Source: an uncultured Thermoanaerobaculia bacterium
Lineage (GTDB): Bacteria; Acidobacteriota; Thermoanaerobaculia; Multivoradales; SZUA-115
Reading direction: 5' to 3'
Assembly (NCBI GenBank): GCA_964420075.1
Contig: CAYQRE010000022.1
Span: 5,825-69,824 of the forward strand
DNA: 64,000 nucleotides
Below are positions 41,087 to 64,000 of the stretch, piece after piece (position 1 is the first letter of the stretch; the number at the start of each line of letters is the position of its first letter). The notes beneath the pieces are model-generated. The model ran no database searches and was not told the origin of the DNA. It saw only the letters and a program-made list of their open reading frames with translations. The position numbers and the translations under genes were made by a program.

Positions 41087-41107
41087 GCTCCGGCCCGAGG
41101 GCGGACG

Positions 41108-43991: not shown

Positions 43992-45927
<1,936 letters not shown>

Positions 45928-45931
<4 letters not shown>

Positions 45932-46581: not shown

Positions 46582-46600
46582 GCCGCGGCGCCGAGGAGAT

Positions 46601-46903: not shown

Positions 46904-48045
46904 GCGAGCTGGGCGTGCGCCTCACCCTGCTGCTCGGGCCGACGGTCGCCCGGCCGGCCCCCCTCGCCTTCATCGAGAACCTGGCGGCGGTCGAGGTGCG
47001 GCACAGCGACGAGGAGCGCTCGGGCTTCCAGCTCGTTTTCAAGGTGGGGCGGCGCGGGCCGCTCGACCTGCTCGAATACCCGCAGCTGCGCAGCCCTCTC
47101 CTCGCCGCCTTCAACCGGGTGATCCTGATCGTCACCTTCAACGTCCGACCGCGGGTGCTGATGGACGGCATCATCACCCACGTCGAGCTGCAGCCCGGCG
47201 ACGAGGCGGGGGCCGCGACATTGACGGTCACCGGCGAGGACGTCAGCGTGATGATGGACCTCGAGGAGCGGGCCGTCGAGCATCCGGCACTGCCCGATCC
47301 GGCGATCGTCTTCAAGCTTCTCGCCCGCTACGCCCGCTTCGGCATCCTGCCGGCGGTGGTGCCCCCGAAGGTGATCGACCCGCCGATCCCCATCGAGCGC
47401 ATCCCCGTGCAGGTGGGCACGGACCGCGAGTACCTCGAGACGCTCGCCCGCCGCCACGGTCACGTCTTCTACCTCACGGCCGGGCCGGCGCCGTTCACCA
47501 ACACGGCCTATTGGGGGCCGCCGCGCCGCCTCGGCGTGCCGCAGCGGGCACTCTCGGTGAACTTCGGCTCGCAGACCAACGTCACCTCGCTCGCCTTCCA
47601 GCACGACGCCCTGAAGCCGGCCTTCGTCGACGGCGACGCCATCGACGCCCGCTTCAATCGCAAGTTTCCCGTGCGCACCTTCGCCGCCCAGCGAGTGCCG
47701 CCGCTCTCTCTGCGGCCCACCTGGCTGGCGCAGCGGGCGAACACCCGCACGACGCTCTACCGTGGCTGCGCGCCCAGCATCCCCGCCGCCTTCGGTCGCG
47801 CCCAGGCCTACACCGACGCCTCGACCGACGCCACCGTCACCGCCTCCGGCGAGCTCGACGCCGCCCGCTACGGCGAGATCCTGCGCGCTCGCGAGCTAGT
47901 AGGGCTGCGCGGCGCCGGCCTTTCGCACGACGGTCTGTACTACGTCAAGGCGGTGACCCATCGCCTGGGACGGGGCACCTACACGCAGAGCTTCACCTTG
48001 ACCCGCGACGGACTGGGCACCACGGTGCCGGTGGTGCGGCCATGA
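46900..48045 (+). CDS. phage late-control gene D-like baseplate hub protein (gp27/VgrG-N-like)
   Basis: GTG overlapping the upstream stop. 381 aa. Its position immediately before the gpV-like spike supports the hub call. Confidence 0.65.
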   Translation: MSELGVRLTLLLGPTVARPAPLAFIENLAAVEVRHSDEERSGFQLVFKVGRRGPLDLLEYPQLRSPLLAAFNRVILIVTFNVRPRVLMDGIITHVELQPGDEAGAATLTVTGEDVSVMMDLEERAVEHPALPDPAIVFKLLARYARFGILPAVVPPKVIDPPIPIERIPVQVGTDREYLETLARRHGHVFYLTAGPAPFTNTAYWGPPRRLGVPQRALSVNFGSQTNVTSLAFQHDALKPAFVDGDAIDARFNRKFPVRTFAAQRVPPLSLRPTWLAQRANTRTTLYRGCAPSIPAAFGRAQAYTDASTDATVTASGELDAARYGEILRARELVGLRGAGLSHDGLYYVKAVTHRLGRGTYTQSFTLTRDGLGTTVPVVRP

Positions 48046-48560
48046 ACGAAGGCGGGATGTCGAACGGGCCGTTCTACGGCAAGTACCGCGGTAAGGTGAC
48101 CAATAACGTCGACCCGCTGCAGATGGGCCGCATCCAGGTCAGCGTGCCAGCGGTGCTCGGTGACGGCCGTCTGTCCTGGGCGCTGCCCTGCGCGCCGCTG
48201 GCGGGCCCGGGCGTGGGCTTCTACGCCGTGCCGCCCCTCGACGCCAACGTCTGGGTGGAGTTCGAGGCCGGGGACCCCGACTCGCCGATCTGGAGCGGCT
48301 GCTTCTGGGACAAGGGGCAGCTGCCCGTCAAGCCGGCGAACCCGTTCACCACCGTGCTCAAGAGCAAGAGCGTCACCCTCACCCTGGTCGATCTGCCGGG
48401 CGCCGGTGGCTTCACCCTCGAGGTCAAGCCGCCGGCGGTGGCCACACCGCTCAAGCTGGCCTTCACCTCGGCGGGGATCGAGCTCCAGAACGGCAAGAAC
48501 TCGATCAAGCTGTCGCCGGCCTCGGTGAGCATCAACAATGGCGCCCTGGAGGTGATCTAG
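48042..48560 (+). CDS. baseplate spike protein (P2 gpV / gp5-like OB-fold)
   Basis: 172 aa. N-terminal …GPFYGKYRGKVTNNVDPLQMGRIQVSVP… is the gpV/VgrG OB-fold signature. Confidence 0.75.
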   Translation: MNEGGMSNGPFYGKYRGKVTNNVDPLQMGRIQVSVPAVLGDGRLSWALPCAPLAGPGVGFYAVPPLDANVWVEFEAGDPDSPIWSGCFWDKGQLPVKPANPFTTVLKSKSVTLTLVDLPGAGGFTLEVKPPAVATPLKLAFTSAGIELQNGKNSIKLSPASVSINNGALEVI

Positions 48561-48883
48561 TGCCGGGCTTCCTCCTCCACAAGGGTGCCGTGGTGCAATG
48601 CGCCCACCTCGGGCGGGCGGAACCGATCCTCACCAACCCGCGGGTCAAGGTGGGCGGCCAGCCGGTGGTGACCCAGGCCGGCCCCTGGCGGGTCTCGGGC
48701 TGCACACTGCCGGCGCCGACGGCGGGCAACGGCCCCTGCCTCACCGCCCTGTGGAGCACGGCTGCCGTGCGCGTGCGGGCGAGCGGCCTGCCCCTCCTCC
48801 TCTTCGACAGCAAGGCGAGTTGCGTGCCGACGGCAACGCCGCTCACCGTCGTCGTCACGCAGCTGCGGGTACGCGGGCAATGA
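48560..48883 (+). CDS. PAAR-like spike-tip protein (DUF4280/PAAR family)
   Basis: 107 aa, Gly/Val-rich with conserved Cys/His (…VVQCAHLG…). Immediately follows the spike gene with a GTG overlapping the stop. Confidence 0.55.
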   Translation: MPGFLLHKGAVVQCAHLGRAEPILTNPRVKVGGQPVVTQAGPWRVSGCTLPAPTAGNGPCLTALWSTAAVRVRASGLPLLLFDSKASCVPTATPLTVVVTQLRVRGQ

Positions 48884-49245
48884 CCCAGGTCGGCTTCCCC
48901 TTCCGCCCCGATGGCAGCGGTCGCAGCGCTCTCGCGAGCGAGGAGCAGCACGTGCGCGACCTCATCGAGCAGGTGTTGTTCACGGCGCCGGGCGAGCGGG
49001 TGAACCGGCCGGACTTCGGTAGCGGGCTCCACCAGCTGCTCTTCGGCGCCGCGAGCCCGGAGCTCGCGGCGACCGTTCAGGCGGTGGTGCAGGGGGCCCT
49101 GCAGCAATGGCTGGCCGACCGCCTGCGGGTCGAGACGGTCGAGGTGAAGAGCGACGAGGCACGGCTGACGGTCACCGTCGTCTATTCGCCGCTCTCCGGC
49201 CTCGACCGCCGCGCCGTGGTCTTCGAGCGCGAGGTGGGTGGATGA
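48880..49245 (+). CDS. baseplate wedge protein gp25/GPW-like
   Basis: 121 aa with …VRDLIEQVLFTAPGERVNRPDFGSGLHQLLF…, the GPW/gp25 motif. Confidence 0.8.
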   Translation: MTQVGFPFRPDGSGRSALASEEQHVRDLIEQVLFTAPGERVNRPDFGSGLHQLLFGAASPELAATVQAVVQGALQQWLADRLRVETVEVKSDEARLTVTVVYSPLSGLDRRAVVFEREVGG

Positions 49246-51674
49246 GCCAGCCTGGCTTCGATCTCCTCGCCGATCCGACGGCCGACTTCCTGCGTGCGCG
49301 GCGGGCTGCCGTGGCGCAGCACGCGAGCCTGGTCGGCCTCGACCAGGTAGAGATCACAGCCTCGGCCCCCGGCAGCTGGCAGCTCGCCCTGCACTTCCTG
49401 CCGGCGGCGGCGGGCCGCGAGGGCAAGCACGCCGTGCTGGCCACAGTCGGCCCCGCGCAGATCGAGCTCCGCCTCGGCGCCGAGCTCGCCACGCCCTACC
49501 TGCTGGTCAGCAGTGTCAGCCAACCCGCTGGCCCGCCGCCAGCGCCGCGCCTCGACCTCACTGTCGTTCAGCCAGCCGCAGCGGCGGTGGGGCCGGCCGT
49601 CTTGACGCTGAGGGTGAACGGCCTTCCCGCCCTCGATCCGTTCTTTGCCTGCGTGCCCTTCTCGCTGCAACCGGCAGCTCCGGCGGCGAGCGATTGCCAG
49701 TCCGCGGCCGTGGCCAGCGCGCCGGCCGCGGCGCCAGCCGAGGCGGCGATCTCCTACCTCGGCCGCGACTTCCTCTCCTTCCGCCGCTTCCTCCTCGACC
49801 GCCTGGCCGTCAACATGCCGAGCTGGCAGGAGGAGAACCCGGCCGACCCCTGGGTGGCCGTCCTCGAAGTGCTCGCTGACGCCGCCGACCGGGTGAGCTA
49901 CTTCGAGGATGCCGTCGCCACCGAGGCCTATCTCGGCACGGCGAGGCGGCGGATCTCGGTGCGCCGGCACGCTCGCCTGGCGGGCTACCGGTTGGAAGAG
50001 GGGGCCAACGCCCGCACCTGGGTGCGGGTGACGGCGGTGGCCGACGGCGCCACGCTGCCGGCCGGGAGCCAGCTCCTCTCGCGCCTTCCCGGCCTGCCCG
50101 CCGTCCTCGCCCCCGGCTCGGCCGAGCTCGACTTGGCGCGGGCGCGCGGGCCGCTGGTCTTCGAGACCCTGCACGCGCTCGACTTGGTCGTCGCCCACAA
50201 CGTGCTGCCGCTCTACGATTGGGGGGCGCCGACCTACGCCCTGGCCGCGGGGGCCACCGAGGCGGTGCTCGACGGTAGCTTTCTCGACCTTTCCGCGGGG
50301 GACGTGTTGGTGCTGGCCGAGGTGGCCGGCCCGCAGAGCGGCCTCGCCGCCGACGCCGACCCGGCCCACCGCCACGCCGTGCGCCTGACGGAGGTGGCGC
50401 TCGGCAGCGACCCCCTGGCGAGCGGCGGTCCGCGGCCCTTGACCCTCGTGCGCTGGCACCCTGAGGACGCTCTGCCCTTCACCCTCTGTCTGGCGGCGCC
50501 CGTGGGCAGTGCCACCGTCCGCGGCCTGGCCCTTGCCTGGGGCAACGTGGTGCTCGCCGACCACGGGGAGACGATCGCCGCCGAGGCGCTCGGCACGGTG
50601 GCGGACGGCACGCCGTTTCGTCCGACCCTGGTGCGCAGCGGCCTGGCCTTCGTGCGGCCCTACGACGACGCTGCCGCCCGCGCCACGAGCGCCACCGCGG
50701 CGCTTGCGGCGAGCAGCACCGCCGTCCCCGCCCTCGCCCTCGACGACGGGACCGCCAGCTGGCAGCCCCGAGAAGACCTGCTGGCCAGCGGGCCGACGAG
50801 CCGGGACTTCGTGGTCGAGATGGATGACGAGCGGCGGGCCCGCCTGCGCTTCGGCGACGGCAGCAACGGCCTCGCGCCGGCGGCGGGGTCGACCTTCGCC
50901 GCCCGCTACCGGGTGGGCGGAGGTTGCGCCGGCAACCTCGGACGCGGCGGCCTGCGCCACGTGGTGGCGGCGGGCGCCGCGGTCGGCGGTGCCGAGAACC
51001 CGCTCCCCGCCGTGGGGGGGAGCGAGCCCGAGGAGCTGGCGAGCGCCCGCCAGCTCGCCCCCCAGGCGCTCACCGGCGGCGGCCGCTGCGTGAGCGTCGC
51101 CGAGTTCGCCTGCCGCGCCGAGGAGCACGCCGCCGTCGCCCGCGCAGCCGCCGACCTGCGCTTCAATGGCAGCTGGCACCTGCTGACGGTGGCGGTCGAG
51201 CGCCGCGACGGCGCCGCCCTGCCCCCGGCTTTCACGGCGGAGCTCGCCGCCTTCCTCGAAGCCGACCGCCTGGCTGGCTGGGAGCTCGCGGTGGTGCCGG
51301 TGAGCTACGTGGGCCTCGACATCGCGTTCGCCGTGGTGGTCGAGCCGGCCGCCTTCCGTGGCGTCGTCGAGCGCGACCTGCTAGCGGCCCTCGGCCCGGA
51401 GGGCTTCTTCGCCCCCGGCCGCTTGCGCTTCGGCGAGGCGGTGTACCTGGGGCCGCTGGTGGCGGCGGCGCAGGCGGTCCCCGGGGTGCGCGCCGTCGAG
51501 CTCGACCCGGCGCCCGGCGGGCGGGCCCGCTTCCAGCGTTGGGGAGAGCCGCCGCGGGGTGAGCTGTCGCGCGGCGAGATCTCGCTCGGCGGCCTCGAGG
51601 TCGCCCGCCTCGACAACGACGCGGCCCGCCCCGAGCGTGGCCGATTGACGCTCTACCTGGAGGGTGGGCGGTGA
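49242..51674 (+). CDS. large baseplate protein (gp6/gp7-like wedge component, uncharacterised)
   Basis: 810 aa. ATGA-coupled between the gp25-like and J-like genes. No specific motif assigned. Confidence 0.5.
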   Translation: MSQPGFDLLADPTADFLRARRAAVAQHASLVGLDQVEITASAPGSWQLALHFLPAAAGREGKHAVLATVGPAQIELRLGAELATPYLLVSSVSQPAGPPPAPRLDLTVVQPAAAAVGPAVLTLRVNGLPALDPFFACVPFSLQPAAPAASDCQSAAVASAPAAAPAEAAISYLGRDFLSFRRFLLDRLAVNMPSWQEENPADPWVAVLEVLADAADRVSYFEDAVATEAYLGTARRRISVRRHARLAGYRLEEGANARTWVRVTAVADGATLPAGSQLLSRLPGLPAVLAPGSAELDLARARGPLVFETLHALDLVVAHNVLPLYDWGAPTYALAAGATEAVLDGSFLDLSAGDVLVLAEVAGPQSGLAADADPAHRHAVRLTEVALGSDPLASGGPRPLTLVRWHPEDALPFTLCLAAPVGSATVRGLALAWGNVVLADHGETIAAEALGTVADGTPFRPTLVRSGLAFVRPYDDAAARATSATAALAASSTAVPALALDDGTASWQPREDLLASGPTSRDFVVEMDDERRARLRFGDGSNGLAPAAGSTFAARYRVGGGCAGNLGRGGLRHVVAAGAAVGGAENPLPAVGGSEPEELASARQLAPQALTGGGRCVSVAEFACRAEEHAAVARAAADLRFNGSWHLLTVAVERRDGAALPPAFTAELAAFLEADRLAGWELAVVPVSYVGLDIAFAVVVEPAAFRGVVERDLLAALGPEGFFAPGRLRFGEAVYLGPLVAAAQAVPGVRAVELDPAPGGRARFQRWGEPPRGELSRGEISLGGLEVARLDNDAARPERGRLTLYLEGGR

Positions 51675-54265
51675 GCGACCTCCTCGCCAACCTCGCCGGC
51701 AAGCCGCCGGCGACAGCACCGGGGCCGACACTCGGTACGAGCGCAGGAACCCCGGCCGGCCCGGCGAGCCTCGCCTTCCGTACCGGCACGCAGGCGAGCT
51801 TCCGGGCGCGGCTGCTCGCCGCGCTGGCGACGATCGCCATCCCGGACGGTCCCTACGCCGGCAGCCGCCCGCTCGCCGACCTCGCCGTCCTCGACCCCAG
51901 CGACCCGGCGATCGCCCTCGTCGACGCCTGGGCCGCGGCCCTCGACGTGCTCACCTTCTACCAGGAGCGGATCGCCAACGAAGGCTTCCTGCCGACGGCC
52001 GGCGAGCGGCGCTCGCTCCTCGAGCTGGCGAACCTGGTGGGCTACGCGCTGTCACCGGGGCTCGCAGCGAGCGTGTTTCTCGCCTTCACGGTGGAAGAAG
52101 GGGCAGGCGGCCCGGAGTCGGTGGTGGTGCCGGCGGCCACCCAGGTGCAGAGCATCCCCGGCCAGGACGCCCAGCCGCAGACCTTCGAGACGGCGAGCGA
52201 GATCACCGCCCGCGCGGCGTGGAACGCCCTCGCGCCCCGCCTGTCGCGCCCGCAGGTGCTCCCCGGCGCGACCGCCGTCTACCTCGCCGGGACGGCGACC
52301 GGCCTGGCCCCTGCCGACCTCCTCGTGGTGGTGGGCAGCGACGCCGCCGGCGCCTTCTCCGGCGCCAGCGTGGCGCGGGTCCAGGCCCTGGCCACGGACG
52401 ACGCGCTCGGCAGCACCAGGGTGGACCTCGCGGCGCCGCTGGCCGTGGCGCCGGCGGCGAGCTTCGCGGTCTTCGCCCTGCGCACCCAGGCGGACTTCTT
52501 CGGCCACAGCGCTCCCAACTGGGGCAGCCTGCCACGCAGCAGCGTGTTCCGCGACGACCCCTTCGACGAGGCCGTGGCGGCCAGCAACTGGGACACTGGC
52601 CGTACCGTGTGGACGGACTCACAGGGTCGCCTGCTGAGCAGCCTGCGGGGCTTCGAGGCGAACCTCGACGGCCCGGTCGCTGGCCTCGTGGCCGGCGGCT
52701 GGGTGGTGCTCGTGGGGACGACCCTCGATGGCGGCGAGGCGACCGAGGTCTACCGGCTGACCGCGGTGGCGAGCCTCACCCTCGCCGACTACTCGCTCTC
52801 CGGCCCGGCCACCGCCCTCGGGCTCGCCGGCGCCGACGGCTCGGCGCTGCCGGGCGAAGAGCTGCTGCGCACCCGTTTCGATTTCCGGCGCACCCGAGCC
52901 TACCTGGCGAGTGAAGAGCTGGCGCGCGCCGAAGAGCCGATCGTGGCGCCTTTGCCCAACCTCGAGGAGGACGGCGGCTTCGCCAACCTGACCCTCGCCG
53001 GTGAGGTCACGGGCCTCGCTCTCGGCCAGGCCATCGCGCTGCGGGGCGAGCGCAGTGACGGCACGGGGCCGGCGAGCGAGCTCTTCACCCTGCACCGCAT
53101 CGACGCGGTGGCTGCGGCGGGAGGAGCCGGGCCGTGGACGCGGCTGCAGTTCGACCGCCCGTTGGCGGCGAGCTACCAGCGGGAAAGTGTGCGGCTCAAC
53201 GCCAACGTCGTCCTCGCCAGCCACGGCGAGACGGTGAGCGAGACGCTCGGCAGCGGCGACGGTACCCAGGCCCGGCAACGCTTCGCGCTGCAGCGCTCGC
53301 CCCTGACCTACCAGCCGGCGCCGGCTGCCGGTGGCGTTGCCAGCAGCCTCAGCGTGCAGGTGGACGGGGTCGCCTGGCGCGAGGTGAAGACCCTTGCCGC
53401 GGTCGACGGCGCCAGCCGCAGCTTCATGATCGAACGCGATGACGGTGGCGGCGGCGCCGAGCGGGCGAGCGTCGTCTTCGGCGACGGCCAGCACGGCGCC
53501 CGGCTGCCGAGCGGCTTCGAGAACGTGACCGCGGTCTACCGCACCGGCCTCGGCGCGGCGGGAGCGGTACCGGCCGGGGCCCTGTCGTTGCTCGTCACCC
53601 GGCCGCTGGGGGTGAGCGAGGTCACCAACCCGCTGGCCGCCAGCGGGGCGGCGCCGGAGGAGGACGTCGAGGCGGCGCGCCGCAACGCCCCGCTCGCCGC
53701 CCGCACCCTCGGCCGCCTCGTCTCGCAGCGGGACTTCGAGGACTTCAGCCGTGCCTTCGCCGGCATCGCCAAGGTCCAGGCGGCCCCCTTGCTGGGCCTC
53801 CACCTGACCGTGGCGGGCGTCGGCGGCAGCGCCGTCGTCCCCGGCTCGGAGCTCTATCGCAACCTGGTGCAGGCGATCACCGACCTGCGCCTGCCGGGGC
53901 CTCCCGTGCGCGTCGACAGCTACGCCGCGGTGCCCTTCCGGCTGGCGGCGAAGCTGCTGCTCGATCCGGCCTACCTGCCATGCGAGGTCTTCGCTGTCGC
54001 GACCGCGGCCCTCGCCGGCGCTTTCGGTTTCGACCGGCGCGAGCTGGGCCAGGGGGTCGAGGCGTCGGCGGTGATCGCCGTCCTCCAGGCCATCGAGGGC
54101 GTCGTCGCCGTCGACCTCGACGCCCTCTACCTGGAGGGCGAGGAGCCAGCTTTCCAGTCCTCACTGCGGGCACGCCCGGCCCGCCTCGAAGGCGGTCGGG
54201 TCCGCCCGGCCGAGCTGTTGCAGCTGGCCGCGGACGGCGTCCTCCTGCGGAGCCGGACGCCATGA
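51671..54265 (+). CDS. baseplate J-like protein (gp6/P2 gpJ family)
   Basis: GTG overlapping the upstream stop. 864 aa. …LDVLTFYQERIANEGFLPTAGERRSLLELANLVGY… resembles the baseplate-J conserved core. Confidence 0.65.
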   Translation: MSDLLANLAGKPPATAPGPTLGTSAGTPAGPASLAFRTGTQASFRARLLAALATIAIPDGPYAGSRPLADLAVLDPSDPAIALVDAWAAALDVLTFYQERIANEGFLPTAGERRSLLELANLVGYALSPGLAASVFLAFTVEEGAGGPESVVVPAATQVQSIPGQDAQPQTFETASEITARAAWNALAPRLSRPQVLPGATAVYLAGTATGLAPADLLVVVGSDAAGAFSGASVARVQALATDDALGSTRVDLAAPLAVAPAASFAVFALRTQADFFGHSAPNWGSLPRSSVFRDDPFDEAVAASNWDTGRTVWTDSQGRLLSSLRGFEANLDGPVAGLVAGGWVVLVGTTLDGGEATEVYRLTAVASLTLADYSLSGPATALGLAGADGSALPGEELLRTRFDFRRTRAYLASEELARAEEPIVAPLPNLEEDGGFANLTLAGEVTGLALGQAIALRGERSDGTGPASELFTLHRIDAVAAAGGAGPWTRLQFDRPLAASYQRESVRLNANVVLASHGETVSETLGSGDGTQARQRFALQRSPLTYQPAPAAGGVASSLSVQVDGVAWREVKTLAAVDGASRSFMIERDDGGGGAERASVVFGDGQHGARLPSGFENVTAVYRTGLGAAGAVPAGALSLLVTRPLGVSEVTNPLAASGAAPEEDVEAARRNAPLAARTLGRLVSQRDFEDFSRAFAGIAKVQAAPLLGLHLTVAGVGGSAVVPGSELYRNLVQAITDLRLPGPPVRVDSYAAVPFRLAAKLLLDPAYLPCEVFAVATAALAGAFGFDRRELGQGVEASAVIAVLQAIEGVVAVDLDALYLEGEEPAFQSSLRARPARLEGGRVRPAELLQLAADGVLLRSRTP

Positions 54266-56289
54266 GCGAGCGCCTCTACCACCGCTTGCCGGAGGTGATC
54301 CGGCGGCGCGACCACGAGGTCGGCGAGCCGCTGCGCGCCCTCCTCCTCCTTCTCGAGGGCGAGCTCGTCGCCGTCGAGCGGGACGTCGCCGGCCTCTATG
54401 AAAGCTGGTTCCTCGAGACCTGCCCGCCCTGGGCGGTGCCCTACCTCGCGCAGCTCCTCGGGGTGAGCGTGCTGGGCGACCCCGCCTACGCCGAGGCCTC
54501 GCCGCGCACCCAGCTGGCGCGGGCCGTGGCCTACCGCCAGCGCAAGGGCACGGCGGCCGTCCTCGAACGCCTGGCCCGCGAGGTGGTGGGTTGGCCGGCG
54601 CGCGCCGTGGAGTATTACCGGCACCTCGCGCACACCCAGAACCCCACCCTACTTCGCTTCGACCAGGGGCGCCTCTTCGACCTCCGCCGGCCGGGCGACG
54701 CCAGCCTCCAGGGCGGGCCGTTCGAGCCGCCGGAGCGCTTTCGCAGCGTCGACGTGCGGCGCATCACCAGCGGCCGCGGTCGCTACAACGTGCCCAACCT
54801 GGGCCTCTTCCTCTGGCGGCTCAAGGTCAACCCGCTGACCGCCACGGCACGGCGGCTGACCTCCGGCTCCGGCCGCTACACCTTCGACACCTTGGGCCGC
54901 GACGTGGCGCTGTTCAACCCGGCGCCGCCCTTGCCGGCGAACGGCGAGCGCCAGGCCGCCGAGCACCAGCTGCCCGTGGCCCTGCGGCCGGCGGCGCTCG
55001 CCGCCGACCTCGGGCTCTACTACGGCAGCGACCTGGCCTTCGCCGTCGAGGCCGACGGGGCGCTGGTGCCCCTCTCCGCGATCGTGGTGAGCGACCTCGG
55101 CGCCTGGGCCGCACCGCCGGCCGGCAAGGTGGCGGTCGACCCCCTGCTCGGCCGCATCCTGTTCGCGGCCGATCGCCTGCCGGCGGCGGTGGACTCGGTG
55201 CGGGGCCGCTACGCCTACGCCGCGGCGGCCGACCTCGGCGGCGGCCCCTACCCGCGGGCGGCGACGCTCTCCGATCTGGCGAGCGCGCCGTTCACAGCCA
55301 CCGTCAGCAAGGCGGGAGCGGTCACCACCCTGCAGCAGGCGATCAGCCTCTGGCAGGCGGACGGCCGGCGCGACGGGGTGATCCGCGTCGCCGACGCGGA
55401 GAGCTACGGCGGCAGCCTCGCCGTCGCCTTACCGGCCGGTGGGCGTTTGGCGATCGAGGCGGCGGACGGCGTGCGCCCCACCCTCAATCTGGTGGGCGCC
55501 TTCGCCGTCTCGGCCAGCGACCGCGGGGCGACCCTCACCCTCAACGGCCTGCGCCTGGCTGGCGCCATCGAGCTCACCGGCAGCCTCACCCTGCGCCTGC
55601 TCCACACGACGCTCGTCCCCGGGAGCGGGGACAGCCTGCGCGCGGGTGCCGGCGGGGTAGGGGAGCTCGCGGTCGAGATCGAGTGCTCGATCGTCGGTGC
55701 CATCCGCCTGCCGGCGGGGATCGTCGGCCTGCTGGCCCGCGACAGCGTCCTCGACGGCAACGGCCGGCGGGCCCTCGCCGCCAGCGACGCCGACGATCCG
55801 CCGGGCCCGGCGAGCCAGCTCGAGCGGGTGACGGTGCTCGGCGGTGCCGCCCTCGACGCCCTGCCGCTCGCCACGGAGGTGCTCTTCGCGGCCAGCGTGG
55901 TGGTGCGCCACCGCGCCGAAGGTTGCGTGCGCTACAGCGCCGCCCCAGCCGGCTCGCAGCTGCCGCCGTGCTTCCGCTGCCAGCCGGACCTGGCGCTCGT
56001 CCGCGAGGCCGAGGCCCTGGGCCTGGCGAGCCTGCCGGACCCCTCGCCCGACCGCGCGCGGGTGCTCGCCGCCTTGACGCCGCGGTGGACCTCGACGCGC
56101 TACGGCGACCCCGGCTACGCGCAGCTCGCCGCCGGCAGCCATCCGGGCCTCGCCGAGGGAGCGGAGGATGGCGGCGAGATGGGGGCCCTGCACTCCCTGG
56201 CCGAGCCGCTGCGCCGCCGGCAGCTCGCCGAGCTGGTGGCCGAGTACGGCCGCTTCGGCCTCGAAGTGGGGAGTTTCTTCGTCACCTGA
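54262..56289 (+). CDS. phage tail protein, P2 gpI-like (Tail_P2_I family)
   Basis: N-terminus MSERLYHRLPEVIRRRD…PLRALLLLLEGEL… matches the P2 gene I family signature. Confidence 0.7.
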   Translation: MSERLYHRLPEVIRRRDHEVGEPLRALLLLLEGELVAVERDVAGLYESWFLETCPPWAVPYLAQLLGVSVLGDPAYAEASPRTQLARAVAYRQRKGTAAVLERLAREVVGWPARAVEYYRHLAHTQNPTLLRFDQGRLFDLRRPGDASLQGGPFEPPERFRSVDVRRITSGRGRYNVPNLGLFLWRLKVNPLTATARRLTSGSGRYTFDTLGRDVALFNPAPPLPANGERQAAEHQLPVALRPAALAADLGLYYGSDLAFAVEADGALVPLSAIVVSDLGAWAAPPAGKVAVDPLLGRILFAADRLPAAVDSVRGRYAYAAAADLGGGPYPRAATLSDLASAPFTATVSKAGAVTTLQQAISLWQADGRRDGVIRVADAESYGGSLAVALPAGGRLAIEAADGVRPTLNLVGAFAVSASDRGATLTLNGLRLAGAIELTGSLTLRLLHTTLVPGSGDSLRAGAGGVGELAVEIECSIVGAIRLPAGIVGLLARDSVLDGNGRRALAASDADDPPGPASQLERVTVLGGAALDALPLATEVLFAASVVVRHRAEGCVRYSAAPAGSQLPPCFRCQPDLALVREAEALGLASLPDPSPDRARVLAALTPRWTSTRYGDPGYAQLAAGSHPGLAEGAEDGGEMGALHSLAEPLRRRQLAELVAEYGRFGLEVGSFFVT

Positions 56290-56306
56290 GGAGGGTGGAG
56301 ACCGGG

Positions 56307-58652
56307 ATGCAAGGGGATTTGAGCCGCCACAGCCACGACCCTGCGAAGCGCTTCACGGCGGTGCGCTTCGAGCAGGGGCGGATGCTCGCCGACGCCGACC
56401 TCAACGAGGCGATGCTGCTGGCGCTGGCGCGCCTCGACCGCGTGGCAAGCGATCTCGTGGGGCCCAGCGGCGCGCCGGCGGAGCCGCCCGTTCCCTTCAC
56501 CTGGCAGCCCAGCGCTCTCGACCCCCAGCAGGTGGGGGTCGGCGCCATTCTCACCACGGGCACGGCGGTGATCGGTCGCGGCACGAGCTTCTTCGCCGCC
56601 GGTATCGCGGCGGGGGCACGGCTCCATGCCGGTGGGCAGACGCGCACCGTCGCCACCGTGCTCACCGAGACCGTGCTCCTGGTCGACGAGCCCTTCGAGC
56701 CGGACCTGCCGGCGGCCGGCAATTTCCAGATCACGGTGCGCGACGGTGGGGCCGGCCTGCAGGTGCACGCCGGCTGCTACAGCGTCGCGGGCTTGCGCTG
56801 CGAGCTGGCGGCGACGGTGGCGCTCTCTGCCCAGCCGGACCTCCCCGGCTATGCCCTGCCGAGCGCCGACGGCCGCTATCTCGCCTACCTCGAAGCCTGG
56901 GAACGCACCCTCTCGACGCTCGCGGAGCCCCTCCTCGCCGAGCCGGCCCTGCTCGGGCCGGACACCTGCCTGCGCACCCGGGTGGTGGCCCAGGTCAAGC
57001 TCCTCGCCGTCGGCGCGACGGCGACCTGCGGTGGCTTTGCGGCCTGGGAGCCGTTGCCTCCAGCCGTCCAGCTGGCGGCGCGAAGCCTGGGCCGGCCCCC
57101 TGCCGACCGTCTCTACCGGGTCGAGGTCCAGGCCCCGGGCCCGCCGGGCACGGCGACCTTCAAGTGGGCGCGGGACAACGCCAGTGCCGCGGCGCCGATC
57201 GAGGCCCTGGGGCCCGGCGAGATCACCGTCGCACCGCCGATCGGACTGGCGGGGGAGGCGGCCTTCGCTGCCGGGCAGTGGGTGGAGGTGAGCGACGAGC
57301 GGCGCATTCTCGCCGGCGAGCCCGGCGTGCTCGTGCAGCTCGCGCGCGTCGTAGGCCAGGTGCTCAGCGTCGAGAGCTGGCCGGGTGGCACGCCGCCGCT
57401 CCTCGGCGCCGGCGCGAGCGCCCGCCGTTGGGACTCACCGGGTGAGGTGAGCGTCGAGGTGGGGGAGGCCGGGGACCTCTGGCTATCGATCGAGGGCGGC
57501 CTCGAGGTGCGTTTCGCAGCGGCAGCGGCGGCCAGCTGTGCCGTGGGGGACGCCTGGCTCCTGCCGGTGCGGGTGGCGAGCGGTGGGGTGCTCTGGCCGC
57601 AGCTCGCCGGCACCCCGCTGGCGGTGGACCCGCAGTCGCCCCGCCACCGCTTCGCACCCCTCGCCATCGTCGAGCGGAGTGGCGGCCGTTTCCGGGTAGT
57701 GAGCGATTGCCGCCGCCTCTTCGGCTCCCTCGCCGACCCGCCGAGCGACACCAAGCTCGACCGCGTGCCGGACCCGCCGCCGGCCGGGCCGGACCTGATG
57801 GAAGGGCCGTTGGTGATCGCGAGTGACCTCGCGGTGCTGGGCGGTTTGAGCGTCGGGAGCGTCGACCCGCCGGCGCCAGACCTCCGCCTCGAGGTCACCA
57901 ACGGGGACCTGTTGCTTGCTGCGGGTGGGAGCGCAGGCGTGGTCTGGCCGCCTCTCGCGAGCGGCGGGGCTGCGGGCTTTCTGCGCTTCAGCCAGGTCGC
58001 GGGAGCCACTCCCCAGCTGACCCTCGGCAGCCAGGGCGGCGGTAGCGACCGCCTCATCCTCCGCCAGGGCGGTGTCGACCGCCTGGTGATCGACAATGGC
58101 CGCTTGGGGGTCGGGACGGTGCCGGCGGCCGGGTTCGCCCTCGACGTCGCCGGGACGATGCGGGCCCAGAACCTGCGCATCGAGGGCCCGGTGGTGATCG
58201 CCGGCGGCGCACCGAGCCCCGGTGCCCTCTTCATCACCGACGACGCCGGTCGCGGCAGCTGGGTGCAGCCCCCCGTGCTGGCGCGCGGCCGGCCGCTCTT
58301 CTTTCCGGCACCGGTCGCCGTGGCGAGCGGTGTCGGGGCGGCCCCGGAGACGATCTTCACCTTCCCGGCCGGCGTCCTCTCGCCGGGTGCCCTCGCCGTC
58401 ATCCTGGAAGCCGAGGCGGCGGCCAACACCGGCGACGGGGTGATCCAGATCGCGACCGACCCCGGGGGCACCAAACGCCTGCTGCTGCGGGCCCGCTCGG
58501 AGGGTAGCGGCGACAGCCTGGCCTGGGCCGGACAGGGCGCTTTCCCGCTCAACCAGGAGAGCTTCGTCTACGAGGTCCTTGAGATCACCGCCAACGACGG
58601 CCCGGCCTTCTCCCACGGCTGGGTCTTGCGCGCCATCGGCTACTACCCATGA
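56307..58652 (+). CDS. tail-fibre-like protein, paralog 1 of 3 (781 aa)
   Basis: GAGGAGGG RBS. Blocks shared with the two downstream paralogs: N-terminal GDxSR…QGRxLLDADxNE, …GYALPSxDGRYLAYLEAWER…, LYRVEVQAPGPPGTATFKWARDNAS, WPQLAGT, HRFAPLAIVERSGG…, and C-terminal W.LRA.G[YF][YF]. Confidence 0.6.
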   Translation: MQGDLSRHSHDPAKRFTAVRFEQGRMLADADLNEAMLLALARLDRVASDLVGPSGAPAEPPVPFTWQPSALDPQQVGVGAILTTGTAVIGRGTSFFAAGIAAGARLHAGGQTRTVATVLTETVLLVDEPFEPDLPAAGNFQITVRDGGAGLQVHAGCYSVAGLRCELAATVALSAQPDLPGYALPSADGRYLAYLEAWERTLSTLAEPLLAEPALLGPDTCLRTRVVAQVKLLAVGATATCGGFAAWEPLPPAVQLAARSLGRPPADRLYRVEVQAPGPPGTATFKWARDNASAAAPIEALGPGEITVAPPIGLAGEAAFAAGQWVEVSDERRILAGEPGVLVQLARVVGQVLSVESWPGGTPPLLGAGASARRWDSPGEVSVEVGEAGDLWLSIEGGLEVRFAAAAAASCAVGDAWLLPVRVASGGVLWPQLAGTPLAVDPQSPRHRFAPLAIVERSGGRFRVVSDCRRLFGSLADPPSDTKLDRVPDPPPAGPDLMEGPLVIASDLAVLGGLSVGSVDPPAPDLRLEVTNGDLLLAAGGSAGVVWPPLASGGAAGFLRFSQVAGATPQLTLGSQGGGSDRLILRQGGVDRLVIDNGRLGVGTVPAAGFALDVAGTMRAQNLRIEGPVVIAGGAPSPGALFITDDAGRGSWVQPPVLARGRPLFFPAPVAVASGVGAAPETIFTFPAGVLSPGALAVILEAEAAANTGDGVIQIATDPGGTKRLLLRARSEGSGDSLAWAGQGAFPLNQESFVYEVLEITANDGPAFSHGWVLRAIGYYP

Positions 58653-58864
58653 GCGATACCGACACCCCTGCCGTCCCGCAACCCGACCGTGCCCGCTTGG
58701 AGCGCCGGCTCGCCGAGCTCGACGCCGAGCTCGCCAACGGCGAGCGGCTGATGGCCGAGCTGGAGGACCGCCGCCTGCGCCTGCGCGAGTCGATGCTGCG
58801 CATCGGCGGCGCCATCCAGGTGCTGCGCGAGCTGCTCGATCGGCCGCCGGAGGAGGGGGCATGA
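58649..58864 (+). CDS. small coiled-coil protein (71 aa), possible fibre assembly chaperone
   Basis: ATGA-coupled on both sides. Heptad-like …RLERRLAELDAELANGERLMAELEDRRLRLRESMLRIGGAIQVLRELL…. Confidence 0.4.
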   Translation: MSDTDTPAVPQPDRARLERRLAELDAELANGERLMAELEDRRLRLRESMLRIGGAIQVLRELLDRPPEEGA

Positions 58865-60978
58865 GGGGCGACTTCTCGCGTTCAGGGGCCGCTGTGGCCC
58901 GCAGCCGGCGCAGCGTCGTCTGGCAGCGTGGCCGGGTCGTCCTCGACGCCGACTGGAACGAGGCCGTCGAGCTTCAGGCCGCCGCCCTGGAGGCGCTGGC
59001 GAGCGATCTCTTGGGCGCTGCCGGGAGCCCGAGCGGCGCCGCTCTCGACGTCACAGTCACAGCCGGCGTCCCGACGCTCACGGCCGGCCGATCCTACGTG
59101 GACGGCAGCCTGGTCGAGGTCGAGGCCGCCACCCCGCTCACCGCACAGGCCGACCTGCCGGGCTATGCCTTGCCGAGCGTCCCCGGGCGCTACCTCGCCT
59201 ATCTCGACGTCTGGCTGGAAGGCCTCGGCTGGCTCGACAGCCCGGAGCTCCTCGAGCCGGCCCTCGACGGCGAGGAGAGCGCCCTGCGCAGCCGCGCGGT
59301 GGCGCAGGTGCGGCTCCTGGCGGTCGATGCCGCCGCCGGGCCGGAGCTCTTCCGGCCGGGCTGGCAGCCGGCGGCAGCGCCGCGGCCGCGGCTCGCCGCA
59401 CGCCTCGCGGGTAGCCCGGCCAACAATCAGCTCTACCGCCTCGAGGTCCACGCTGCTGGTGGTCTCGGCACCGCCACCTGGAAGTGGTCGCGGGACAACG
59501 CCAGCGTCACGGCCGGCGTGCTGTCGATCACCGGCACCACGCTTGCCGTGCGCCTGCCGCCACGGGCAGACGCCCTTGCCTGGTTCCCGCCGGGCGGTTG
59601 GGTCGAGGCGACCAGCCGCAGGCGGCGGCTGCGCGGCGAGCCGGGGGTGCTGGCCCGTGTCCTCACCACGATCCCCGGTGCGAGCCCCACTGTCACCGTC
59701 GAGGCCTGGCCAGGAGGCGTGGTGCCGGTGGACGTCGACCGCCTGGTGCGTTGGGATTCCCCCGGTGCCCTGCCGCTCGCTCAGGCGACGGCCAACGGGG
59801 GTTTCGTGCCCCTCGAAGAGGGCCTCGAGGTGCGCTTCTCGGGCGAGGCGGCAGCTGTCGCCACCAGTGGTGACGCCTGGCTGCTGCCGCTGCGGGCCAC
59901 CGCCGGGCTGCTCAGCGAGGAGGACGCCGGCGCTCGCGCGGACGCTGCCACCGCCGAGCCGGACGAGGTCCGCCACCACTACGCGCCACTGCGCCTGCTC
60001 GAGCGCACGGCCGGCGGCTGGCAGCTGGTGGCCGACGGCGACTGCCGGGCGCTCTTCGCGGGTGCCGGCACCATCGACCTCGCCGGCAAGGTAGATCGCA
60101 GTGGCGATACGCGCAGCGGACCCCTCACCGTCGACAGCCATCTCTTGGTCAGCGGCCAGACCCGGCTGGGGCCGGTGGCGGCCGACAGCACGGCGCGCCT
60201 CGCGGTCGCCGACGGCGGCAGCCGGCTGGGAGCGAGCTCGCGCCTGCTGTTCCCGGCGCTCGGGGCGGCCGCGGCGTCCTTGAGCGCGAGCGGCAACGAG
60301 CTGCGGTTGGCGGTCGTCGGCGGCTCGCTGCGCGTGGCGCAGGCCGGGGGGGACCGCCTCGTCCTCAGCGGCGGCCGGGTGGGGATCGGCACGGTCGCGC
60401 CGCAGGTCGACGTCGAGATCGCCGGCAGCCTGCGCGCCGGGCAGCTGACGGTGGCGAGCGAGCTGGTGATCGTCGACGGCAACCAGCGGGCTGGCCGCGC
60501 CCTGACGGCGGTCGATGCGAGCGGCCTCGCCACCTGGCAGGCGCTCAGCGAGCAGCAGCTGGTGCGTCCGACCTTTTTCCAGCGGCCGGTGATCGTGGCA
60601 CAGAGCGGGGGCAGCAGCTTCTTGCCGCTGGTCAACTACGTCTTTCCGGCCAACACCCTGCCGGTGGGTGCGACGGCGGTGATCCTCGAAGGGCGGGCGG
60701 CGGCGAACTCGCCCGACAGCGGTGCAATCGACCACTTCCTGCGGGCCCGTCGCGACGACGCCTCGCCCTGGCTGGTGCTGCTGCGGGCGCGCGCCGCCGG
60801 CGGCTCGGACAACGGCAGCTGGGCCGGTGTCGGCGTCTTCCCCCTCAACACCAACCCGGACCTACCCTTCCACTTCCAATACTCCGTCCAGGCCTTCGCC
60901 GGTGGCCAGGACGTGCCGCCCACCGGCGGCGCCTTCCCCCAGGGCTGGCGCATCCGAGCGGTGGGCTTCTTCCTCTGA
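58861..60978 (+). CDS. tail-fibre-like protein, paralog 2 of 3 (705 aa)
   Basis: Shares all conserved blocks with paralogs 1 and 3 (…LYRLEVHAAGGLGTATWKWSRDNAS…; C-terminal WRIRAVGFFL). Confidence 0.6.
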   Translation: MRGDFSRSGAAVARSRRSVVWQRGRVVLDADWNEAVELQAAALEALASDLLGAAGSPSGAALDVTVTAGVPTLTAGRSYVDGSLVEVEAATPLTAQADLPGYALPSVPGRYLAYLDVWLEGLGWLDSPELLEPALDGEESALRSRAVAQVRLLAVDAAAGPELFRPGWQPAAAPRPRLAARLAGSPANNQLYRLEVHAAGGLGTATWKWSRDNASVTAGVLSITGTTLAVRLPPRADALAWFPPGGWVEATSRRRRLRGEPGVLARVLTTIPGASPTVTVEAWPGGVVPVDVDRLVRWDSPGALPLAQATANGGFVPLEEGLEVRFSGEAAAVATSGDAWLLPLRATAGLLSEEDAGARADAATAEPDEVRHHYAPLRLLERTAGGWQLVADGDCRALFAGAGTIDLAGKVDRSGDTRSGPLTVDSHLLVSGQTRLGPVAADSTARLAVADGGSRLGASSRLLFPALGAAAASLSASGNELRLAVVGGSLRVAQAGGDRLVLSGGRVGIGTVAPQVDVEIAGSLRAGQLTVASELVIVDGNQRAGRALTAVDASGLATWQALSEQQLVRPTFFQRPVIVAQSGGSSFLPLVNYVFPANTLPVGATAVILEGRAAANSPDSGAIDHFLRARRDDASPWLVLLRARAAGGSDNGSWAGVGVFPLNTNPDLPFHFQYSVQAFAGGQDVPPTGGAFPQGWRIRAVGFFL

Positions 60979-60985
60979 GGGCGCC

Positions 60986-63067
60986 ATGGGCCTCGACCTC
61001 TCCCGCGACCTCTTCGACCGCCGCCGGCATCACCGCGGCGTGGTGCTGCAGCAGGGCCGCCTCCTGCTCGACGCCGAGTTCAACGAGCAGGCCGACATCC
61101 TCGAGCACCGCCGGCGCACCACCACGGCGGACCTGGTGGGCCCGAGCGGCGCCGCCGGCGACGGCTTCCGCGTCACGGCGGGTAGCGGCACGCTTGCCGT
61201 CGCGCCGGGCCGCCTCTACCGTGACGGCTTCCTCTGCGAGCTGCTAGCGGCCGTTCCCGATCTCGGAGCTCAGCCCGACCTGCCAGGGGTGGCGCTGCCC
61301 ACCGCCAACGGCACCTATCTCGCCTATCTCGAAGCCTGGGAGCGCGAGGTCTCGGCGGCGGTCGATGCCGACCTCCTCGACCCGGCCTTTGCCAGCCAGA
61401 GGACGGCCGGTCGCCACCGCCTGGTCACCCAGGTGCGGCTGCAGGCGGTGCCGGCGGGGGCGGTCTGCAGCTCTTTCGCCCCGCCCTGGACCCCGGACGG
61501 CACGCCGGCACCCGCCGCCGGGACGCTTGCCGCCAGCGCGGCGGCGGGGGCCACGACGTTCGCGGACCAGCTCTACCGCGTCGAGGTCCACGCTCCCGGG
61601 CCAGCGGGCACCGCGACCTGGAAGTGGGCCCGCGACGGCGCCTCCGTGGAGCTCGCCGTGCTGAGCGTGGCCGGGACGACGCTCAACGTCGCGCCGCGGC
61701 CGGGGCTCGCGCCGGGGACGGCCCTGGCGGCCGGGGATCGGGTCGAGGTGACCGACGACGGCCGCGCCCTGCGCGGCGAGCCGGGGGTGCTGGCCACGCT
61801 CGCTGCCGTCGACCTCGCGGCCGGCACCTTGACCGTCGCCGCCTGGCCGGGGGGCGCGCCGGTCCTCGGCAGCGGCGCCGTGGCCCGCAAGTGGGAAGGC
61901 GACGCCCAGCCCCTCAACGCCGGTGCGACCGTCGTGGTCGACGGTGTGCTGGCGCTGCGCTTCGCGGCCGGCGGCCGGCCGTTCCGCAGCGGTGAGCACT
62001 GGCTGGTCCCCACCCGCCGGGCAGCCGGGGTGCTCTGGCCGCAGCTCGCCGGCACTGCCGAGCCCTTGCCTCCACGCGGCCCGGAGCGCCACTTCGCGGC
62101 CCTCGCCCTGGTGCAGCGCGCCGCAGGCAGCTGGACGGTGGCGAGCGATTGCCGCGTGCCGCTGCGGCCGCTCACCGACACCCTCGACCCTAACAAGGTG
62201 GACCGCGGTGGCGACAGCATGACCGGCCCCCTGACGGTGACCGAGGACCTGATGGTCGTCGCCCAGATGCATGCCGGCGGTACCACCCTGCCTCCGGCCG
62301 GCACCCAGCTGCAGGTGAGCGGCGGCCCCCTGGAAGTGGCGAGCGGTGCCAGCCCGGCGGCGGGCTTGCGCTTCGTCGTTGGGGCCGGCGAGGCGGCCCT
62401 GCGGCTGACTGCGGCAGGCTTCGTCTTCGAGGCAGCAACGGGCGGCAGCCTGGTCTTCCGCGAAGGGGCCGCCGACCGCCTGGTGCTGGCGGCGAGCGGC
62501 AACCTCGGCCTCGGTGTGGCGAGCCCCACGGCGAGCCTGCAGACCGGCGGCCAGGCGCGCGCCACGGCTCTCACGGTGAGCGGCGCCGCCCCCAACGGCG
62601 TCCTCACCTTCGAGCCGGGCGCGATCGACGGCTACGTGCTGACCTCCGATGCCGACGGCAAGGCAACCTGGCAGCAGCTGCCGAGCGCGGCGAGCGGCAG
62701 CCCGGTCTACTTCCCGGACCTCGTCGTGGTGGCGAACGGCAGCACGCCGAGCGGCTACCAAACGTTCACCTTCTCCGATGGCGATGTCCCCGAGGGCGCC
62801 TCGGCCGTCCTCGTCCAGGCGCAGACCTTCGTCCACCACGGTTCGGTCGACATCCGGATTCGGCGCAATGCGGGCGCAGCCGAGGTCTCCTTGCTGCGCG
62901 CGCACTCCTTCGACGGTGGCCCGCTGGTCGGCAAGCGGGTGCAGGGGGGCGCCGCCAATCAGGGCATTTTCCCCCTCGACAACGGCAGCTTCCAGTGGGC
63001 CGTGGTCGAGGAGTTCGGGCCGCTCAGCCTGGCCTGGGAGATCCGTGCCGTGGGCTTCTTCCTGTAG
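60986..63067 (+). CDS. tail-fibre-like protein, paralog 3 of 3 (693 aa)
   Basis: Shares conserved blocks (…LYRVEVHAPGPAGTATWKWARDGAS…; C-terminal WEIRAVGFFL). Confidence 0.6.
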   Translation: MGLDLSRDLFDRRRHHRGVVLQQGRLLLDAEFNEQADILEHRRRTTTADLVGPSGAAGDGFRVTAGSGTLAVAPGRLYRDGFLCELLAAVPDLGAQPDLPGVALPTANGTYLAYLEAWEREVSAAVDADLLDPAFASQRTAGRHRLVTQVRLQAVPAGAVCSSFAPPWTPDGTPAPAAGTLAASAAAGATTFADQLYRVEVHAPGPAGTATWKWARDGASVELAVLSVAGTTLNVAPRPGLAPGTALAAGDRVEVTDDGRALRGEPGVLATLAAVDLAAGTLTVAAWPGGAPVLGSGAVARKWEGDAQPLNAGATVVVDGVLALRFAAGGRPFRSGEHWLVPTRRAAGVLWPQLAGTAEPLPPRGPERHFAALALVQRAAGSWTVASDCRVPLRPLTDTLDPNKVDRGGDSMTGPLTVTEDLMVVAQMHAGGTTLPPAGTQLQVSGGPLEVASGASPAAGLRFVVGAGEAALRLTAAGFVFEAATGGSLVFREGAADRLVLAASGNLGLGVASPTASLQTGGQARATALTVSGAAPNGVLTFEPGAIDGYVLTSDADGKATWQQLPSAASGSPVYFPDLVVVANGSTPSGYQTFTFSDGDVPEGASAVLVQAQTFVHHGSVDIRIRRNAGAAEVSLLRAHSFDGGPLVGKRVQGGAANQGIFPLDNGSFQWAVVEEFGPLSLAWEIRAVGFFL

Positions 63068-63078
63068 GAGGGCGCAGC

Positions 63079-64000
63079 GTGCAGACGAGGGCTCGAGCAC
63101 CCCTGCCGACGAGAATCGAGCGTGGCGTCCAGAAGGCGAAAGGGCATGGCGAGCCGCTGTCCCAGGCGGTCGCTGGCGAGCTCGGCAACGCCATCGGCAC
63201 GGACGTCTCACGGGTCCGTGTGCATGCCGACGGCGGCGCTGATCGTCTGAGCCGCGAGGTCGATGCAGCGGCCTTCACGGTGGGGGAGGACGTCTTCTTC
63301 CGCCGCGGCTTTTTCCAACCGCAGACGCCGGAAGGGCGCGGCCTCCTCGCCCATGAGCTCACCCATGTGGCGCAGCAGCGCGCCAGCCGCGGCCTCGATC
63401 TCGGGGTTGCCGCGCCCGCCTCCCTGGCGCCGGACGGGCGGCCTCTGGCGCCGGCCGTCTTGCAGCGCAAGCCCTTCAAGGGGCCCAATCTGACCAGCGT
63501 GAACCGTGTCGCCACCAACTTCGCCGCCCACGCCTTCCAGTTCGTGGGCGCGGCGCGGGCCACCACCGGCTGCGGCACCGACAACAAGATCACCACCGAC
63601 GGCTCGTCGGTCAACAACGCCGTGTCCAGGCCCGGCACTCCCGCGAAGATGGGCACCTACCGGGGAGGCTTCTCGCAGGCCGGCGGCCTGGTGCGCGACA
63701 AGGTCTTGGCGCAGGCTGCCACCCGCATGCACCTGATCAATCATCGCCTGGAGAACAGCGCGAAGACCCAGCGCAACGCCCGTAACATCTTCCTCGGCAC
63801 CCAGAAGAGCAACAACCCAACGCACTTGAACGAGGTCGAGCAGCCGGTGATCGATGCCGTGACCAACCACGGCACGCAGGACAACTTGCGCTATCAGGCG
63901 GCGATGGCGGCGGCCGTCAAGACCACCGACAAAGCGGGGGCCGACATCCTGTTCTGGGCCGCCAAGCCCAACAACCTGGCCGTCAAGCACACGCAGCTCA
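63079..64000 (+). CDS. DUF4157-domain protein (eCIS-associated HExxH putative effector), 5' part; continues beyond the window
   Basis: Not in the ORF track because it has no stop inside the window. GTG at 63079 after AGGAGGG. Hand translation gives …PLPTRIERG…GTDVSRVRVHADGGADRLSREVDAAAFTVGEDVFFRRGFFQPQTPEGRGLLAHELTHVAQQ…, the DUF4157 core with HELTH. Confidence 0.7.
   Translation, partial: MQTRARAPLPTRIERGVQKAKGHGEPLSQAVAGELGNAIGTDVSRVRVHADGGADRLSREVDAAAFTVGEDVFFRRGFFQPQTPEGRGLLAHELTHVAQQRASRGLDLGVAAPASLAPDGRPLAPAVLQRKPFKGPNLTSVNRVATNFAAHAFQFVGAARATTGCGTDNKITTDGSSVNNAVSRPGTPAKMGTYRGGFSQAGGLVRDKVLAQAATRMHLINHRLENSAKTQRNARNIFLGTQKSNNPTHLNEVEQPVIDAVTNHGTQDNLRYQAAMAAAVKTTDKAGADILFWAAKPNNLAVKHTQL

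Follow-up and report, generated by a model that had tools for sequence, protein, structure and literature searches.

Does the contractile injection system (CIS) of an uncultured Thermoanaerobaculia bacterium encode a recognizable payload, and which activity could this payload have? The window considered here is a stretch of 64,000 nt (GenBank assembly GCA_964420075.1, contig CAYQRE010000022.1, positions 5,825 to 69,824 of the forward strand) that encodes a CIS operon with a complete gene set. Its order is sheath, gp19-type tube, T4-baseplate-like protein, Pvc16_N terminator, AAA ATPase, Phage_base_V spike, gp25, Baseplate_J, Tail_P2_I and three DUF6519 proteins. DUF6519 corresponds to eBAP5, a tail-fibre baseplate-attachment domain of extracellular CIS (eCIS) (PMC12923769). 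An earlier inspection of the letters without database searches (hereafter the sequence-only reading) had proposed that an effector gene directly follows the fibre genes and encodes the payload of the particle. The three preceding genes indeed carry DUF6519, and 11 nt separate the stop codon of the last one from the GTG start codon of the effector gene (product P0001), which lies on the same strand at the operon's 3' end, the position expected for eCIS cargo. Gene position, domain architecture and a leader that P0001 has in common with a second protein of the locus all support the proposal. P0001 is quite likely the payload of this CIS, and it is probably a modular cargo toxin that would be loaded by the upstream CIS, injected and act as a nuclease.

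The reading frame itself is well defined. From GTG 63079 on the plus strand it is free of stop codons for 307 codons up to the window edge (63079-64000), as the sequence-only reading had it, and every peptide quoted there is present in the translation. The public contig L001 (23 kb) shares the final 3000 nt of the window at 0 mismatches and carries the whole gene. A window coordinate equals the L001 coordinate plus 53078, and L001 thus extends the window, which was the extension asked for by the sequence-only reading. The gene ends with TGA at window-equivalent 64417-64419, which is 419 nt past position 64000. The complete protein has 446 aa and in a protein search was 100 % identical over the 307 aa encoded in the window. 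It is therefore full length and not the short fragment that a nearby stop codon would have left, nor is it a housekeeping peptidase. The GC content at third codon positions (GC3) of the effector frame is 0.88-0.90, similar to that of the genes for sheath, ATPase and fibres, in a window of 73 % GC. Because this codon-position pattern matches that of the real genes in the window, the frame is regarded as coding. Two antisense open reading frames (ORFs) on the minus strand (63208-63990 and 63024-63656; GC3 0.66 and 0.83) have the wrong codon-position pattern and were rejected as genes.

P0001 is composed of a leader, an eCIS_core domain (formerly DUF4157), a linker and a C-terminal module (see Table 1 for boundaries). 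The sequence-only reading recognized a DUF4157 core by hand translation, which is confirmed by a nearly full-length match to Pfam PF13699 (eCIS_core; 'PVC-metallopeptidase') at residues 26-103 (profile positions 1-78 of 79, E = 1.3e-26). The match scores 93 bits, where the gathering score is 22, and is far beyond chance. The HExxH motif is intact and located on the zincin-like helix. The identity of this N-terminal domain as eCIS_core/DUF4157 is practically certain. The literature agrees with the further claim that DUF4157 is enriched in eCIS effectors, since the domain is a strong marker of eCIS-associated toxins (EATs) (PMC8213781, PMC11297309) and is highly specific to eCIS loci, with an odds ratio of 2614 (PMC8213781). 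It is probably not the toxic part of the protein. The AlgoCIS effector Cgo1 is toxic regardless of its metalloprotease motifs, that of DUF4157 among them (PMC8894135). By analogy, the HExxH motif of P0001 is probably not its toxic activity and the domain would be an accessory, cargo-associated module.

The toxic activity would instead reside in the C-terminal module, which the sequence-only reading left unassigned but regarded as a possible toxin module. Residues 130-446 have no match in Pfam, NCBIfam, PADLOC or PDB sequences, and PDB sequence searches with the single protein, with an 11-sequence profile and with a 41-sequence profile gave no meaningful match. A HMMER scan with the window-encoded part of the module recovered 39 clusters at E <= 1e-3 among 1.84 billion representative proteins; the family is rare. 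An alignment of 41 members, which are 22-66 % identical overall, revealed a conserved core with the pattern T-[KR]-M-H-[LA]-I-N-H ... N-I-F-[LM]-G-[TS]-x-x-S-N-N-P-x-H-x-x-x-V-E. H218 and N221 are invariant in all 41 members, and N236, G240, N245, H249 and E254 in all 40 sequences that cover these positions. Since H218, N221, N236, N245, H249 and E254 are invariant at such low overall identity, the pattern is one that would be expected of an active site and not of a binding surface. The N-terminal eCIS_core is present in 25 of the 41 members. The other 16 keep the module without an eCIS_core match, and some of these are N-terminally truncated fragments.

A link to known nucleases came from one distant member, P0152, which is related to the module of P0001 with E = 6.8e-4 library-wide (1.84 billion proteins). 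The core is near-verbatim in both proteins, and it is precisely over this core that P0152 passes the threshold of Endonuclea_NS_2 (PF13930) (31.2 bits against a gathering score of 27). In a comparison of all 41 members with Pfam at E <= 5, no nuclease match other than that of P0152 was found. P0001 is therefore outside the Pfam nuclease families PF01223 and PF13930 as now modelled, and belongs to their superfamily by fold. Three large members (P0140, P0141 and P0143; 1187-1534 aa) have a nuclease module that is apparently split by a long insertion with MgtE_N repeats and that keeps the family-typical C-terminal end.

AlphaFold gave no usable model of the key region from 11 sequences (pLDDT, the per-residue model confidence, <50 for residues 105-267), and a model built with 41 sequences was used instead. 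Its mean pLDDT is 91, with values of 94-98 over most of the module. A strand at residues 215-218 that ends in H218, a strand at 237-240 and a helix at 242-264 lie exactly over the invariant core and form a beta-beta-alpha-metal arrangement. Together with a central sheet, this unit defines the fold of the superfamily, and both are present in the module model. A Foldseek search of the model against the PDB gave no significant match, with EndA having the best TM-score. Structural comparison matched the module to Spd1 (2xh3_B, score 11.1; root-mean-square deviation 2.0 A over 129 residues), EndA (3owv_B, 11.1), Streptococcus agalactiae NucA (4qgo_A, 10.9), Sda1 (5fgw_A, 10.3), the Serratia nuclease (1g8t_A, 10.3), EXOG (5zki_A, 10.0), Anabaena NucA (2o3b_A, 9.6), EndoG (3ism_B, 9.4) and the type VII secretion system toxin EsaD (8gun_A, 8.3). 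All nine are His-Me-finger DNA/RNA non-specific endonucleases. On the basis of this model, the module very likely has a His-Me-finger nuclease fold, albeit a very divergent one, and the conserved core together with the modelled fold supports the assignment of the downstream region as a nuclease-like toxin module. In the model, H218 is probably the general base, and N236 or N245 together with E254, which we equate by inference with Glu164 of Spd1, probably form the metal site. A PoNe-type (PD-(D/E)xK) DNase, a toxin earlier reported to be fused to DUF4157, was also considered and rejected, as the predicted fold is that of a His-Me finger.

How P0001 might enter the particle is suggested by its N-terminus. 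Loading of AlgoCIS cargo needs a system-specific N-terminal region, and DUF4157 is dispensable for it (bioRxiv 10.64898/2026.05.27.728243). L001 encodes a second eCIS_core protein, P0025, with an N-terminal region of 135 aa, of which the first 18 residues resemble the leader of P0001. The local alignment of the P0001 leader and the P0025 N-terminus has a score of 44, which was reached by 1 of 5000 shuffles, and the pattern QTRxRxPxPxxIxRxV is common to both. Because of this similarity and the requirement in AlgoCIS, the leader is a candidate loading signal. In the proposed mechanism, it would be recognized, probably with help of the AAA ATPase of the operon, and the protein would be loaded into the tube lumen. 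Contraction of the sheath would then expel P0001 into a target cell, where the nuclease module would degrade nucleic acid. The general base would be H218, and a metal-water cluster would be held by E254 and either N236 or N245. The C-terminus of P0025 ('EIDHVTDLQWGGEDSPDNLWPL...RN') resembles an HNH nuclease motif by eye and has no Pfam match. Residues 139-183 of P0025, the first half of its eCIS_core, weakly match the hypothetical protein TTHA1254 (PDB 2d4o, E = 2e-4). This may be the sole solved structure with sequence similarity to any portion of eCIS_core.

Related loci give the genomic context for this proposal. The nuclease module is encoded at ten recovered loci, in genomes of Thermoanaerobaculia, Holophagales, Bacteroidia, Flavobacteriaceae and Glaciecola. 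Metagenome-assembled genomes (MAGs) of Thermoanaerobaculia and Holophagales hold the nearest relatives of the effector gene and of the gene that follows it on L001, which points to an Acidobacteriota origin; a scan of GTDB genomes for an exact relative of P0001 gave no match. DUF6519 fibre genes adjoin the nuclease gene in L013 (collinear) and L004 (convergent), and a CIS-type AAA ATPase gene lies <= 2.5 kb from it in L009, L011 and L012. The locus of a Fluviicola sp. MAG (L009, 9176-14377) has four tightly packed genes with a common MKTHA...ILQAYK leader directly before the CIS AAA ATPase gene. One of them is a member of the nuclease family and two others end in DAGH..QNGG..FPQNP..N.GN motifs; the set leaves no space for immunity genes. 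The common leader follows the same principle as the system-specific leaders of cargo pairs.

The gene that follows the effector encodes a protein of 526 aa with a Methyltransf_28 domain, a MidA/NDUFAF7-like S-adenosylmethionine (SAM) methyltransferase, and tetratricopeptide repeats (TPR). It starts 2 nt after the effector stop codon and the two genes are translationally coupled. Further along L001 follow P0025 and a convergent gene without a family match, and the operon thus ends in a cargo-type module of three genes. In nine independent loci, which come from two phyla (Acidobacteriota and Bacteroidota), the nuclease gene is directly followed downstream by a gene for a homolog of the methyltransferase-TPR protein with 39-55 % identity. 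The partner family is as rare as that of the nuclease, with ~11 full-length members among 5.8 billion clusters. All homologs from protein searches with at least 44 % identity and readable context are paired with the nuclease, and three distant ones (31-35 %) are unpaired. Two loci with such distant homologs lack the nuclease (L017, 2970-6431, and L019, 2067-4858); one of these homologs follows three phage tail-Collar genes and the other precedes a gene with a weak match to HopA1, a type III effector. The partner is absent at three loci that have the nuclease gene (L009, L011 and L012).

An adjacent immunity gene was among the features to look for according to the sequence-only reading. A conserved adjacent gene is present, but its product is not a typical small immunity protein. 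The partner has no match to any Pfam or PADLOC immunity family, and a PDB search with its methyltransferase half gave one non-significant match (E = 0.67) over the SAM-binding stretch. The SAM-binding signature (ELGAGxGxFS, MSD, ANYVFD..P) is invariant in the partner family. The protein is acidic (isoelectric point, pI, 4.9) and has no cargo-like leader; the nuclease module is basic (pI 9.6). The partner could be an inhibitor or immunity protein, a toxin-modifying enzyme or a loading chaperone. An enzymatic role, with the TPR part as the docking site for the nuclease and the methyltransferase covalently modifying either the nuclease or a component of the producer, so that the toxin is kept harmless in the producer or readied for loading, is a tentative and rather unlikely option. 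If true, it would be a form of catalytic immunity or maturation for which no description among injection-system effectors exists, and it could help to explain why antibacterial cargo does not kill the eCIS producers themselves. No methyltransferase/TPR partner of CIS nuclease effectors was described in the literature searched.

Several observations weigh against P0001 as a CIS-delivered nuclease. P0001 itself has no Pfam nuclease match even at E <= 5. It has TRMH where the canonical motif is DRGH, and the residue at position 216 is K/R in 35 of the 41 members, Ala in five and Gln in one. The region before DUF4157 is just 25 aa long and not clearly disordered, with residues 11-20 modelled as a helix (pLDDT about 90), whereas characterized eCIS cargo has longer disordered N-terminal regions (bioRxiv 10.64898/2026.05.27.728243). 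Lastly, the nuclease-partner pair is found away from CIS structural genes in L005/L014 and L018, with none within 6-10 kb. Orphan effector loci are, however, common for injection systems.

The pairs without nearby CIS genes could imply that the nuclease and methyltransferase-TPR genes are an autonomous toxin/antidote or conflict module, which is not delivered by a CIS and tends to insert near CIS loci. The tight coupling of the pair and its conservation in the nine loci fit such a module, and a basic toxin with an acidic partner is also found in many nuclease-inhibitor pairs. However, every paired toxin keeps eCIS_core, with its strong preference for eCIS loci (PMC8213781), and the pair adjoins fibre genes in the window, in L004 and in L013, even with inverted orientation in L004. 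Moreover, the toxin gene without partner is directly beside the CIS ATPase gene in L009, L011 and L012. An autonomous module therefore seems improbable. A little less probable again is that the CIS acts inside its producer, for example in regulated cell death or development as in Streptomyces CIS, and that the nuclease is directed at nucleic acids of the producer itself. Non-antagonistic roles have been documented for CIS that are cytoplasmic or anchored in the membrane (PMC11126660, PMC8894136), and no lysis cassette was seen here, in an analysis that made no search for one. Still, the three DUF6519 fibre genes are of a receptor-binding type and point to an external target, and a conserved partner gene on the producer side fits better with restraint of an exported toxin. 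Least probable is that the zincin-like DUF4157 domain is the working enzyme, as a metalloprotease toxin or a particle-processing protease, and that the C-terminal module binds nucleic acid or a target without catalysis, since this disagrees with the dispensability of DUF4157 and its motifs in AlgoCIS loading and Cgo1 toxicity, with the invariant residues of the C-terminal module and with the members that keep this module without an eCIS_core match.

As a cargo toxin, P0001 resembles several known effectors. AlgoCIS has two DUF4157 proteins, Cgo1 and Cgo2, that are loaded in the tube lumen and released on contraction (PMC8894135; bioRxiv 10.64898/2026.05.27.728243). Like these, P0001 consists of an N-terminal region, DUF4157 and a variable C-terminal domain, and both CIS clusters have two such genes with similar N-termini. 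The C-terminal domains are unrelated, that of Cgo1 being metalloprotease-like and not a nuclease. In addition, the leader of P0001 is shorter and a methyltransferase-TPR gene lies between its two cargo genes. Tube filling by Cgo1 and Cgo2 was seen by experiment, whereas P0001 is a predicted cargo. With respect to toxin type, P0001 resembles Pne1 of the Pseudoalteromonas metamorphosis-associated contractile structures (MACs), an eCIS effector that carries a nuclease domain of PF13930 with Spd1 and Sda1 among its relatives (bioRxiv 10.1101/543298). Unlike P0001, Pne1 lacks DUF4157 (bioRxiv 10.64898/2026.05.27.728243) and its nuclease domain is directly recognized by Pfam; the module of P0001 is recognized by none of the Pfam nuclease models, is larger, with 317 aa, and reads TRMH where DRGH is canonical.

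The overall layout of P0001, an N-terminal DUF4157 and a C-terminal toxin domain, is also that of DUF4157 EATs such as EAT11 (deaminase) and EAT14 (transglutaminase). The genes for EATs of this kind lie at the 3' end of eCIS operons, often with another DUF4157 gene beside them, and their products are toxic when expressed in a heterologous host (PMC8213781, PMC11297309). The toxin chemistry differs from that of EAT11 and EAT14, and most EATs have no identifiable neighbouring immunity gene, whereas the P0001 family has a conserved partner. Compared with EndA, Spd1, Sda1, the Serratia nuclease, Anabaena NucA, EndoG and EsaD, the module of P0001 is 8-17 % identical, and these relatives are missed by Pfam and PDB sequence searches. 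The delivery route of P0001 would differ from those of the His-Me-finger nucleases and their toxin forms, and its candidate partner, with a methyltransferase-TPR architecture, is also different from theirs.

P0001 is thus a probable eCIS cargo toxin of an expected kind, with a nuclease subfamily that had not been modelled before, and the effector itself will not surprise a specialist. Its description gives a high-GC contractile injection locus an identifiable payload with a testable activity and extends the repertoire of eCIS toxins by a rare, non-specific nuclease subfamily, while eCIS biology as a whole looks the same as before. As most predicted DUF4157 EATs, 983 out of 1130, lack another annotated domain (PMC11297309), a profile of the subfamily could annotate some of the proteins now listed as 'DUF4157 only'. 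The unexpected element is the partner, the only one that could lead somewhere new. Because it is conserved together with the nuclease, it is a candidate for the means by which producers withstand a nuclease cargo, a question raised explicitly in PMC8213781.

Table 1. Features of the injection-system operon and of the effector region. Positions are window coordinates unless L001 is named.
Feature	Position	Strand	Basis or remark
CIS operon, complete gene set	38998..63067	+	Pfam scans and gene calls on L001
DUF6519 fibre paralogs in tandem (781, 705, 693 aa)	about 56307-58652, 58861-60978, 60986-63067	+	
Shine-Dalgarno-like AGGAGG	63066..63071	+	7 nt 5' of GTG; overlaps TAG stop (63065-63067) of last fibre gene
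Effector gene (P0001), first 307 of 446 codons	63079..64000	+	translation, L001 overlap, GC3
Short basic N-terminal leader, aa 1-25, begins MQTRARAPLPTRIERGV	63079..63153	+	candidate loading signal
eCIS_core/DUF4157 domain, aa 26-103, minimal zincin-like fold	63154..63387	+	Pfam PF13699
HExxH motif HELTH (H92-E93-L94-T95-H96)	63352..63366	+	sequence
Flexible Ala/Pro-rich linker, aa 104-129	63388..63465	+	pLDDT <50 for residues 106-129; length varies among relatives
C-terminal nuclease-like toxin module, 317 aa (aa 130-446)	63466..64000	+	aa 130-307 (178 residues) in window, remainder past window
Putative beta-beta-alpha-metal active-site core, aa 215-254, TRMHLINHRL...NIFLGTQKSNNPTHLNEVE	63721..63840	+	H218 codon 63730-63732
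MidA/NDUFAF7-like SAM-methyltransferase + TPR gene, 526 aa	L001 11344-12924 (window-equivalent 64422-66002)		just outside window
P0025, second eCIS_core protein, 453 aa	L001 13007-14368 (window-equivalent 66085-67446)		two genes downstream of effector

The tandem DUF6519 paralogs could provide several receptor specificities on one particle, and an ORF of 71 aa (58649-58864) lies between the first two of them. Directly upstream of the operon, on the minus strand, a protein of 2428 aa with at least 17 DUF11 repeats, CARDB and DUF7507 is encoded (31617-38903). A further ORF of 1353 aa (24160-28221, plus strand) has no Pfam match and is overlapped by long antisense ORFs in DNA of 73 % GC; it may be spurious. 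The genes for the Pvc16_N terminator and the AAA ATPase are located at the 3' end in the antifeeding prophage (Afp) and Photorhabdus virulence cassette (PVC) systems. In the window they are found mid-operon (42705-45931, plus strand), between the tube and baseplate genes.
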